Assembly: GCA_963594895.1 (NCBI GenBank)
Contig: CAVBFJ010000010.1
Span: forward strand, 1,129 to 65,128
DNA: 64,000 nucleotides
Reading direction: 5' to 3'
DNA from: a bacterium
GTDB taxonomy: Bacteria; Bacteroidota; Bacteroidia; Bacteroidales; Bacteroidaceae
Under the pieces are notes generated by a model. It saw only the letters and a program-made list of their open reading frames with translations, had not been told where the DNA came from and made no database searches. Positions 36,081-53,067 of this stretch are shown piece by piece. Within the stretch, counting starts at the first letter, position 1, and each line of letters opens with the position of its first letter. The position numbers were made by a program, and so were the translations under genes.

Positions 36081-39000
36081 ATGAAGAAAACATGCTCATT
36101 TATCCTGATGGTGGCAACGATAGTTGGAGCCGTCATTGCGAAAAGTATTTCTCCGTTGGGCACACCGGCCCACCAGTCGCCTGTTGGCCAAGTCCCAGCG
36201 GACACCATCGGCGGAACAGCCTCGACGGACAGTGTGCCAGCCCAACCGTCAACAGCCGACTCACTCTCCGCTATCGTGTCCGACAAGTCGTTGTCGCTTA
36301 CCTTCACCAATGACTCCGAACACCCCTGGAACATCGGCAGCGACGGCTATCTGCACAACGGCAATGTGGGCATAAGCAACAGCTCATCGGGCTTCGGATT
36401 CAATTACGACTGCGAATACCGCACTGAGCTGAGTTTTGACTGGGCGTGCTATAACTATCTTTCCCACAGACTGTATCTGTATATCGACGGTGTGCAGCGA
36501 GAGTTCACGACCAACAGCAGCAACACCACCCCAAGGTATTATCTGGAACCGGGAACCCATGCCATCAGGTTTCTTGACGTCATTGACGGCAACACCTATG
36601 CGCAGCGCGACTGGAGCCGTATTCGCAACTTGTGTGTCAGGCCCGTGCTTCCTTTGGACACCGCGATCGTGTCAACACAATCTCAGCCGCTCACCTTTGT
36701 GAATGAGGGCGCCTATCCCTGGATGGCTGAAGACGGCTATGCGCAAAGCGGCAACTACGGGCATCCTAACACCACGTCCTCTTTCTCCACAACCCTGACC
36801 ATCGACAAGCCAAGCAAATTGTCGTTCTGGAGTTCGACCTATTGCTATAACAACAACGGCAACACCTACGACTATAGCGGTTACCATTACTTCAGCTTTA
36901 AGGTAAACGGACGCACCTATATGGGACGGGAGAATGGTTCGGGAACAACGTCCCTGTTGTTGCAACCAGGAAATTACACCTTGGAATGGAGCGACTCCAT
37001 CTACAGCTACAACGACTATTCCCTGAAGTCGCGCATCAAGGACGTTCAACTGTCGTCTGACTGGATCGAAGTCGAACTGGCCAAGGCTGGCACCTTGGGC
37101 GTGGAGGTGCTTTACCAGGCCGACGTGCTGAACGACGTGGAGCTGCTGAAGGTGAAGGGCAACCTGAACAGCGACGACTGGACGGTCATCAAGAACATGA
37201 AGAACTTGATCGGCCTGGACCTCTCGGAAGCCAACTTCAACTCAGTGCCCGACTATGCGTTCGACGGACTGAGCAGTCTGTCGTATGTCGCCCTGCCCGA
37301 AGGACCAACCACCATCGGACAATATGCATTCAGGGGAACACAACTCCTGAATATCGACATACCCAACAGCGTAACATCCATCGGCCAATATGCCTTTGCC
37401 AGCACAAGGGTGAGAACCGTCAATTTCCAGGAAGACTCCAAGCTGGCATACATCGGATACAAAGCATTTGAGAATTGCACCTCTCTGGAGCGTTTCATCA
37501 TGCCCAATACTGTCACGACACTCGGAACATACAACAATTATGTTGACAACACGTGTGGAACCTTCTCTGGTTGCACCAATCTCGAGAATATTCATTTCTC
37601 TGACGCATTGTCCACTTTAGAGCAAGAAGTGTGTTACAACTGTACAAAACTAAAAGTGGTGCATCTTCCCAAAAACATCCTGGCCATACGAGATGATGCA
37701 TTCTATAACACCCCGTCCATAAGATATATCGACTTACCCTCCTCTTTGAAGAGGATAGACAACAACGCTTTCTATCATTGTGGCATCGACAGTGTGAAAC
37801 TGCCAATAGGACTGACCGTTTTGGAAAGCCAAGCTTTCCAAAACTGCTGGAACTTGAAATACGTGGAGTTGCCTTCTTATATAAGCAGCTATGATAAAAA
37901 TTTCTACGGTTGCTCTTCCATCCAGAAGATCGTGTGCAACTCCGCCACGCCACCGGCCATCACAAACGATCCTTTCCAATATGGTCCTTCCAAGTCTAAC
38001 GTCACCCTGGTCGTGCCGTCGTTTGCCGTGGCCAACTACAAGCTGGACTCTTACTGGTATCAGTTCGGAACCATCCAGGAGATGGATGTCGACTTGGACT
38101 ATTGGCGCATCGCCAGCGCGCTGGGGCTGACCAACAACCGCAGGATGAACGGGAAGCCCGACATCGAACTGTACTATGGCGGACAGTTTGCCGTCAGCGG
38201 CAACGCACCGATGACCATCAAGAACTTCGACATCTACGTCAGCGAGAGCAATCCCGGCCGACTGCTGAACGACTGCGCGGCAATGACCGCCGACAGCATA
38301 ACCAGCCACTTCTCAGTGGATGCCAACAAATGGTATTTCCTCACCCCACTCCACGATGTGGACCTGACGAAGGTGACCCACAGCAACCAAGCGGCCTCAT
38401 TCGTCTTCCGCTATTATGACGCCGCAAGCAGGGCGGCCAATGGCACCGGCAGCAGCTGGAGAAACGTGGACGACGGCAAGCTGGCCGCCGGAAAGGGATA
38501 CATATTCCAAAGCAACTCCGCCGGCGTTGTGACGATGCCCGCCGCAGCCGCCACACACATCCAGGTGCTGACCACCAATGACGTGACAACCACGCTGGAG
38601 GCTCACGAGGCCACAGCGTCAGCCAACAAGAACTGGAACTATGTCGGCAATCCGTACCCGGCTTATTACGACATCTATTACATGGACTTCACGGCGCCCA
38701 TCACCGTATGGACCGGAAGCACCTACAAGGCCTACTCGATAGCTGACGACGACCTCGTGCTCCGTCCCATGCAGTCGTTCTTCGTGCAGAAGCCCGACGG
38801 CGTCGACAACATCGTGTTCCACAAGGAAGGCCGCCAGACGACATCCGGCATCGAGCGCGCGTCGGCCGCCAAGGGCCGCCTGATGGCTTCCGCCAACATC
38901 GCCCGCCTGTTCTTCAATCTCGAGATTGCCAACGAGGAAGGCCTGAGCGACGAGACACGCCTGGTCATCAACGAAAACGCCCTGACGGGATATGAGCTTG

Positions 39001-53067: not shown

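Follow-up and report, generated by a model that had tools for sequence, protein, structure and literature searches.

The stretch analyzed here, called the window throughout, comprises 64,000 nucleotides of a Bacteroidaceae genome (GenBank assembly GCA_963594895.1, contig CAVBFJ010000010.1, forward-strand positions 1,129 to 65,128) and contains four consecutive genes, g1 to g4, the third of which encodes an Rhs protein. On balance, these genes probably encode a surface-anchored Rhs polymorphic-cargo system that depends on Sec and on type IX secretion (the T9SS), in which a cargo would be caged in the periplasm, cut by self-cleavage, tethered to g4 by a disulfide, exported as a passenger, displayed on a CARDB stalk, and released on contact. 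The sequence supports the gene order, an intact cage and protease motif, cassette exchange, fused equivalents, and the C-terminal sorting domain (CTD) of g4; from these we infer the mechanistic steps. The four genes are as follows.

36081-39539, + strand: g1, intact open reading frame (ORF) of 1152 aa
39564-46322, + strand: g2, intact ORF of 2252 aa
46338-50237, + strand: g3 (Rhs), intact ORF of 1299 aa
50248-53067, + strand: g4, intact ORF of 939 aa

An earlier note on this DNA, made from the sequence alone, had described four co-oriented genes with tiny gaps and signal-peptide-like N-termini. The gaps are 24 (g1-g2), 15 (g2-g3), and 10 bp (g3-g4), none of the ORFs has an internal stop, and signal peptides were called by sequence pattern, which agrees with that description; among g3 homologues, 34 of 35 have one, ending before QNII. 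In Pfam and NCBIfam searches, which underlie all family matches reported here unless stated otherwise, g1 has a signal peptide and three BspA-type LRR_5 leucine-rich repeat matches, and g2 has a signal peptide, three Flg_new_2 matches (InlB-B repeats), a PKD domain, seven CARDB domains, a PPC-like domain, and two immunoglobulin (Ig)-like tail domains. The Rhs protein consists of a signal peptide (aa 1-25), a DUF6531 plug, 19 RHS_repeat matches, TIGR01643, TIGR03696, an aspartyl-protease core, and a variable cargo of 113 aa. Gene g4 encodes a signal peptide, a disordered Cys-bearing linker, DUF7619 (aa 56-236; CnaA/pilin-like), FN3, a weak cadherin-like match, further domains, and a type A T9SS CTD.

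A genome scan reduced 176 pattern matches to six loci, five with g2-g3-g4 and one short contig with g4 only, and g1 and the beginning of g2 lie directly upstream in all five; the four-gene synteny that the earlier note proposed to look for thus recurs in 5/5 genomes examined, and the carriers look like kin of Prevotellaceae. A metagenome scan added 49 further loci. Of 57 loci examined, 47 have an Rhs core upstream of g4, and 10 have none in the available DNA, mostly on short contigs; a longer look showed a core end and cargo in L090 and insertion sequence (IS) elements in L069 and L096. Presence is patchy: 3 of 350 genus genomes carry the locus, and a search of 400 family genomes gave a close g4 orthologue in two and one further, partial match. 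Viral contigs yielded no relative.

A functional link among g2, g3, and g4 is backed by natural fusions, in which the same modules form one chain in the order CARDB stalk, Rhs cage, cargo, linker, DUF7619, FN3, and sorting signal. The best 150 clusters matched by a g4 profile include nine chains of the type Rhs-cargo-DUF7619 and 14 Rhs-free ones of the type CARDB-PPC-Ig-(insert)-DUF7619. Similarly, 18 of 26 long g2 homologues continue into DUF7619 without Rhs, five end where g2 ends, and one (P0293) is a complete CARDB-Rhs-cargo-DUF7619 chain. The tail of g2 marks one of the joints.

45726..46319, + strand: g2 tail, an Ig-like and a terminal Ig-like domain, which precedes Rhs or cargo in fused proteins

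In P0012 the terminal domain of g2 is joined directly to DUF7619. Complete or near-complete chains were also found in genomes (L149, L150, and L151), as were pairs of a separate g2 and a fused g3g4 with a CTD (L147 and L148). The chassis occurs fully fused, with g2 apart from g3g4, as g2g4 lacking Rhs, or split. A T9SS CTD of type A or B stands at the end of many fused Rhs chains (e.g., P0099, P0104, P0134, and P0298-P0311), which means that a cage of this family can itself bear a T9SS signal. The genes g2, g3, and g4 are thus modules of one chassis that is cut at the same joints, each piece having its own signal peptide, and, as part of the same favored explanation and with the same moderate degree of confidence, the operon would have arisen by fission of one giant chain. 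Of the putative multi-subunit apparatus of the earlier note, a functional link among g2, g3, and g4 is backed by these fusions, and the use of g1 as a fixed receptor-binding subunit is weakened.

In the same searches, no T9SS CTD was found on g2 or g3 (E 0.01). The CTD of g4 scores above the TIGR04183 cut-off, and the g1 C-terminus is a weak type A match below it (16.7 bits, E 0.005, cut-off 23), so that the earlier note's restriction of T9SS C-termini to the first and last proteins holds for g4, g2, and g3 and less well for g1. The absence of a CTD match on g2 and g3 is what would be expected if no assembly formed, with g4 and g1 exported alone and g2 and g3 either periplasmic or released through lysis or outer-membrane vesicles. 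The presence of g4 behind cargos disrupted by an IS (L066 and L069) fits the same idea. Yet lineages that are unrelated have their splits at matching module boundaries, every piece has gained a signal peptide, the order is kept, and a linker Cys of g4 is kept in 47/47 loci in an otherwise variable linker, making this the least probable of the alternatives and a very unlikely one.

The structural model of g3 (predicted local distance difference test score, pLDDT, 77.6) has the YD-repeat beta-shell, and its best Foldseek matches are Rhs cores (E 1e-62); similarity to 9ifo and 9pt5 is confined to shell and core, and the cargo part of the model is unstructured (pLDDT <50). Two features of the shell and core matter for what follows.

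49776..49895, + strand: Rhs core protease motif with R1147, D1160 (KDPL), and D1183 (PIVNIDLMG), aligning with RhsP and TccC3
47268..47273, + strand: shell Cys-Cys 311-312, shared by all of the 34 full shells listed and, with Cys450, an alternative disulfide partner

Both core Asp motifs named in the earlier note, KDPL and DLMG, are thus retained and align as D1160 and D1183. They lie 23 residues apart, and R1147 precedes D1160 by 13 residues, the same spacing as R2103 and D2116 in BiTLP. Cleavage of g3 is expected after G1186, or after N1187 by analogy with BiTLP. The first catalytic Asp is retained in 46/47 loci; the second served to place the cleavage site, and its count is not independent.

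The cargo lies in a stretch of deviating composition that the earlier note did not mention.

49790..50340, no strand assigned: low-GC exchange cassette (GC 0.25-0.37 against about 0.6) spanning the core end, the cargo, and the g4 signal peptide and Cys linker
49896..50234, + strand: cargo of the window, net charge +8, with an amphipathic Lys/Leu/Gly helix and a single Cys1297 three residues from its end

DNA identity to relatives breaks across this cassette. Pairwise comparison of 13 close loci (78 pairs) gives medians of 96% identity for the shell, 99% for the DUF7619-FN part of g4, and 20% for the cargo. Cargos are 85-242 aa long (median 170) and form 21 clusters in 47 loci, cargo GC is below shell GC in 42/42, and a quick tree of 40 of the 47 rows, without seven short ones, shows the same cargo families on separate shell clades. 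The system combines a conserved trafficking part with an exchangeable C-terminal module, as in polymorphic toxin systems, and the cargo is most likely a toxin. Neither this polymorphism nor the relation of the operon to one giant chain had been noticed in the earlier note. Four of 33 representative cargos exceed Pfam cut-offs, namely TNT (NADase; L093, E 1.7e-27), the two lipase-type cargos Lipase_3 (L067) and Mbeg1-like (L102), and Gly-zipper (L110), and two more match weakly. The first ~80 aa of the window cargo match the cargos of L065 and L079 and the remainder differs; it has no match in Pfam, NCBIfam, or Atlas, and it would be membrane-active.

Several other cargos are of interest in themselves. 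Different cargos in one set of loci (L001, L109, L004, and L086) and in another (L003, L005, and L070) have the same Cys-bearing last 30-50 residues, which suggests a docking tail exchanged apart from the active part. Another group of cargos (L071, L074, L077, L084, L094, L098, and L100), rich in Gly and beta-hairpin-like, contains five Cys along with short tandem repeats of Pro/Tyr and has no family match. The cargo of L090 (52-639) has an HxG..SxGC-like motif, no sequence match to solved structures, and no immunity ORF in the 320-bp gap that follows; the motif hints at an L,D-transpeptidase-like cargo, and a motif in the cargo of L146 (genome G512) at an HNH-like one, readings that Pfam and NCBIfam do not support.

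The linker and sorting signal of g4 supply the other half of the proposed tether.

50323..50325, + strand: g4 Cys26, 30 residues before DPNE; a Cys lies 29-34 residues before DPN in 47/47 loci
50335-50337, + strand: second linker Cys30 of g4, present in 6/47 loci only
52846..53055, + strand: type A T9SS CTD of g4 (TIGR04183, 34.5 bits, cut-off 23)

The model of the g4 head has a disordered linker of ~35 residues, a CnaA/pilin-like domain (match to RrgB, Z 9.5, root-mean-square deviation 3.0, 138 residues aligned), and FN3, and the head has no sequence match to solved structures. Attachment of g4 as a lipoprotein through its Cys was rejected, as the conserved Cys follows a mature end starting with Gln and the signal-peptide Cys is not conserved. 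DUF7619 is a large family (8923 clusters at 50% in the g4 profile search). A large class of proteins (P0020, P0029, P0034, P0044, and ∼35 more) has a signal peptide, two SprB-like Ig domains, and, in place of a cargo, a Cys 3-4 residues before DPN (C-S-x-DPN). Many stand-alone proteins of 1200-1800 aa from Prevotellaceae (L010-L036 and L040-L055) lack Rhs and have a variable, often helical, Cys-bearing segment just before DPNE; these are possibly cage-less members of the same cargo-display chassis.

Cysteine counts connect the cargo with the linker. Of 46 fused chains detected, 45 were scored, P0141 being dropped because its site was not placed. The count over cargo plus linker is even in 38/45 and zero in 14/45, and in 17 of the 21 chains with exactly two Cys, the cargo contains the first and the second lies 20-50 aa before DPN. 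Parities of body and linker covary, being odd/odd in 20, even/even in 18, and discordant in seven (agreement in 38/45). In the split systems, cargos have an odd number of Cys in 43/47 loci and 20/21 cargo clusters, and the sum of cargo and g4 linker Cys is even in 39/47 loci. The simplest reading of these counts is a single disulfide that would be intramolecular in fused and intermolecular in split forms, and it suggests that such a tether lets a cage lacking a CTD use the T9SS signal of g4.

Several observations count against this tether. The sum in the window itself is odd (one cargo and two linker Cys), as it is in seven other loci, including three with lipase cargos. Unrelated Rhs tails, which served as a control (54 scorable of 120 fetched in a search for long g3 homologues), are odd in 38/54; among tails of comparable length the figure is 18/25 (Fisher p 0.055 when set against the cluster count). 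An odd Cys count was accordingly rejected as proof on its own. The parity counts also ignore kinship of the loci, the shell holds candidate partners of its own (Cys311-312 and Cys450), and several cargos have a lone Cys near the N-terminus (positions 6-46), which a separate g4 chain could reach only by threading deep into the cage.

These points lend themselves to an alternative with the same export and toxin role, in which the cargo Cys would bond a shell Cys in the manner of BiTLP, the subunits would be joined non-covalently through the g2 tail, DUF7619, and plug, and the g4 Cys would pair elsewhere or internally. BiTLP offers a precedent in the bond C2216-C719, according to the accessible text of PMC13018210. 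The shell Cys-Cys is invariant and Cys450 frequent, the two linker Cys of the window could pair with each other, and a single Cys is common in unrelated Rhs tails. Fused chains without a cargo Cys, however, also lack a linker Cys (none in either for 14/45), though several retain the shell Cys, and in L086 and L093, where Cys450 is missing, cargo and linker each contain a single Cys. A cargo-shell bond is accordingly considered unlikely, if less so than the other alternatives.

With the tether to g4 retained as the preferred reading, the following course of events can be proposed. All four proteins would enter the periplasm via Sec, with the consequence that the cargo would never be free and folded in the producer cytoplasm. 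The g3 protein would fold its YD cage around its own tail and cleave itself after DLMG(N), and the disordered linker of g4, ~35 residues long, would form a disulfide with the unpaired Cys of the cargo, replacing the peptide bond between cargo and DUF7619 of the fused forms, while the tail of g2 would dock at the same plug end of the cage. The CTD-less g3 and g2 would then exit through the T9SS as passengers of g4 and stay on the surface, where contact via the CARDB stalk (and g1), together with reduction of the linker or pulling on it, would free the cargo onto a neighbour cell. Consistent with this route, SprA is encoded in 6/6 carrier genomes (the window genome and G401-G405).

The earlier note had reported no immunity ORF after the Rhs gene, which is borne out in the window, where the 10-bp g3-g4 gap has room for none, and no immunity-sized ORF lies between g3 and g4 in 46/47 loci. 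The Rhs stop lies no more than 230 bp from DPNE in 32/47 loci, which leaves no space for a gene, and the TNT cargo too overlaps the start of g4. In 14 of the other 15 loci there are only short ORFs, lying in repeats or, in L098, in a second copy of the g4 start; in the last, L066, an element with an integrase breaks the locus. Longer gaps are filled by short tandem repeats in L092, L094, L098, L101, L103, L107, L112, and L090. The N-terminus of g4 was considered as an immunity protein and rejected, since it consists of ~35 disordered residues. The genome of the window has a second Rhs gene (G000 contig C5 85905-89592, L039), which encodes 1072 aa with a signal peptide and TIGR03696. A 162-aa ORF with no family match overlaps its end, transposase-like ORFs come next, and the arrangement resembles a conventional toxin-immunity pair; beside this usual layout the lack at g3 stands out. 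Immunity would mostly be dispensed with through periplasmic caging and targets outside the kin group.

Three points weigh against a caged toxin that needs no immunity. In genome G512, from another family, the same split order includes a 237-aa ORF that overlaps the stop of the Rhs gene, followed by an IS and the g4 equivalent, and a 110-aa frame is placed similarly in L096; neither has a family match, and the G512 ORF has no sequence match to solved structures, which leaves them immunity candidates by position only. A cytoplasm-acting antibacterial cargo might thus still recruit an immunity gene into the split gap. BiTLP chimeras indicate, in the accessible part of PMC13018210, that a shell alone need not protect its producer. 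The remaining 27 of the 33 representative cargos have no Pfam match. The proposal of the earlier note that immunity is unnecessary because the target is non-self therefore agrees with the usual lack of an immunity gene and is weakened as a general rule by the G512 ORF.

The missing immunity ORFs (46/47) and cargos without a Pfam match could also mean that no weapon is involved and that the caged peptide is a signal or decoy in a variable display on the cell surface that serves kin recognition, adhesion, or antigenic variation, DUF7619 being a stalk or anchor of general use. This family occurs more often after SprB-like, peptidase, or Cys-rich modules than after Rhs, and its fold matches the CnaA domains of pilins and adhesins (RrgB). 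The existence of TNT and lipase cargos, the retained cage and protease motif, a cassette exchange typical of polymorphic toxins, and the immunity-like ORF after the G512 cargo speak for a toxin instead, and display alone is regarded as distinctly improbable.

A type VI secretion system (T6SS) was not found either. VgrG (PF05954) and TssC (PF17541) were not found in the window genome, which is 92% complete, nor was TssC found in G401-G405 (0/6 carriers overall), with a TssC model that was positive in 5/80 family genomes as a control. The g3 protein has no PAAR or VgrG match and the four genes have no TcA or TcB match, which agrees with the earlier note, where no VgrG, PAAR, or Tc genes were seen in the window. 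An immunity ORF is likewise not regular in the 47 close loci, and a T6SS was not found in the six carriers, a regular immunity ORF or T6SS linkage being what the note would have counted against itself.

The part of g1 is less firm. Neither fusion nor homology to g1 was found among 400 fetched proteins, for which reason its role as a fixed fourth subunit was rejected, and in L037 its place is taken by a non-homologous LRR/dockerin protein. The leucine-rich repeats that the earlier note invoked for a receptor-binding subunit are present, and g1 is now better seen as a candidate accessory adhesin that is replaceable.

The operon is delimited upstream by two features.

35842..35880, + strand: strong terminator-like hairpin, an 18-pair stem and a T run, closing the upstream glycoside-hydrolase genes and separating them from g1-g4
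36009..36016, + strand: TAnnTTTG match (-7 box type), read from the sequence

The latter we take to be the -7 box of Bacteroidota housekeeping promoters, and the two together suggest that g1-g4 are transcribed as a unit of their own. Past g4, the next gene is on the opposite strand. Between g4 and this convergent gene (53394-53475) are short imperfect direct and inverted repeats (ctaatc, gatagatgcc, and ggcatctatc). The flanks hold polysaccharide-use genes at 29373-35758 (esterase, arabinofuranosidase, and GH36) and xylanase-like and transporter-like ORFs with a hybrid two-component sensor at 53607-62528; they differ among relatives, which makes the operon look like an inserted accessory unit. 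In relatives a fifth co-oriented secreted gene often lies a few bases after g4 (L037 614-2083, L056 2893-4770, L066-L110, L097, and L100-L103), with an N-terminus like g4 aa 747-862 and Listeria-Bacteroides or MBG repeats; it is absent from the window. Elsewhere in the window (15111-18875, - strand), a 1254-aa protein has a Schlafen AlbA_2 domain at 858-994 and no PADLOC match. A defence-system reading of the locus was dropped, as PADLOC gave no match.

Rhs cages are known from several secretion contexts. The T6SS-linked effectors (RhsA 7q97, Tse5 8cp6, RhsP 8h8a, Tse15, and 8qja-d) have the same YD-repeat cage, DUF6531 plug, DPxG-x-DPxG aspartyl protease, and variable C-terminal cargo, whereas the system described here has a Sec signal peptide, no PAAR or VgrG part, no TssC found in the six carriers, usually no immunity gene, and a cargo that either runs on into a DUF7619 anchor or would be tied to one. 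WapA-type Sec-exported Rhs proteins and Tc BC subunits form T6SS-independent cages with caged cargo, as here, but WapA is a single chain with WapI immunity, and Tc needs TcA/TcB. The chain of metazoan teneurins extends beyond its shell into domains outside, a course that the fused forms also require. Teneurins lack the cleavage motif; here it is kept, and a variable cargo separates the core from the external domain.

The closest relatives in design are bacterial teneurin-like proteins (TLPs, here BiTLPs) and TANFOR toxins. BiTLPs share Sec export, adhesion domains before the YD shell, and a small caged polymorphic cargo, with a membrane-active example, and in them a disulfide at the plug end holds the cargo, a precedent for the tether; they have TTR/FN-plug/NHL domains, a chain ending at the cargo, and almost always a downstream immunity gene (PMC13018210, accessible text). 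The present system differs in its CARDB stalk, its DUF7619-FN3-CTD anchor after the cargo, and its usual lack of an immunity gene, and g3 has no NHL or teneurin N-terminal family match, its mature form starting with DUF6531 and YD repeats. TANFOR toxins of Bacteroidetes likewise have a signal peptide, no CTD of their own, and polymorphic C-terminal toxins, including TNT; they are encoded beside CTD-bearing T9SS substrates, and T9SS export was hypothesised for them, but they have no Rhs cage, usually have immunity genes, and are given no tethering mechanism in the accessible text of PMC7073777. No TANFOR match was obtained for g1-g4, in libraries whose inclusion of a TANFOR model was unchecked. 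CLIPPER-like CnaA domains resemble the modeled DUF7619 region of g4 (aa 56-236) in fold only, and the accessible text of 10.1101/2025.04.25.650565 presents a DUF7619-type domain as an adhesin-stalk isopeptide domain, with no link to Rhs or cargo display.

Judged by its sequence, g3 is an Rhs cage protein, and the system seems to work like a polymorphic toxin system, yet it has no T6SS link, no TLP domains, and no adjacent immunity gene. The literature searched, which does not extend to supplements and most subscription papers, gave no account of such a chassis; CARDB and Por terms are not found in the accessible text of PMC3482391, and that of PMC8416519 is unrelated. The new element is a split chassis with cargo between cage and anchor, and the nearest printed ideas are TLPs and TANFOR toxins. 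More tentatively, the system may represent an undescribed class of contact-dependent delivery, with a cross-phylum chassis whose cargo would not end the chain but form a loop, closed by a disulfide and fastened to an anchor on the surface. This chassis would be split in three in Prevotellaceae of gut and rumen, CTD-less subunits including a cage of ~130 kDa would cross the outer membrane by the T9SS as disulfide-tethered passengers, and reduction or traction at the target would release the cargo, with no immunity protein.

If this is true, the T9SS would have a concrete role in effector delivery, and the export of CTD-less substrates, left as a hypothesis in the accessible text of the TANFOR paper (PMC7073777), would have a testable answer. 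Next to T6SS, Tc, and WapA/TLP there would be one more way of employing an Rhs cage, the cargo lying, as in teneurins, between the cage and an anchor. The large DUF7619 family would gain a role as cargo anchor, and dozens of family-less cargos from gut and rumen bacteria, many membrane-active in appearance, would come into view.

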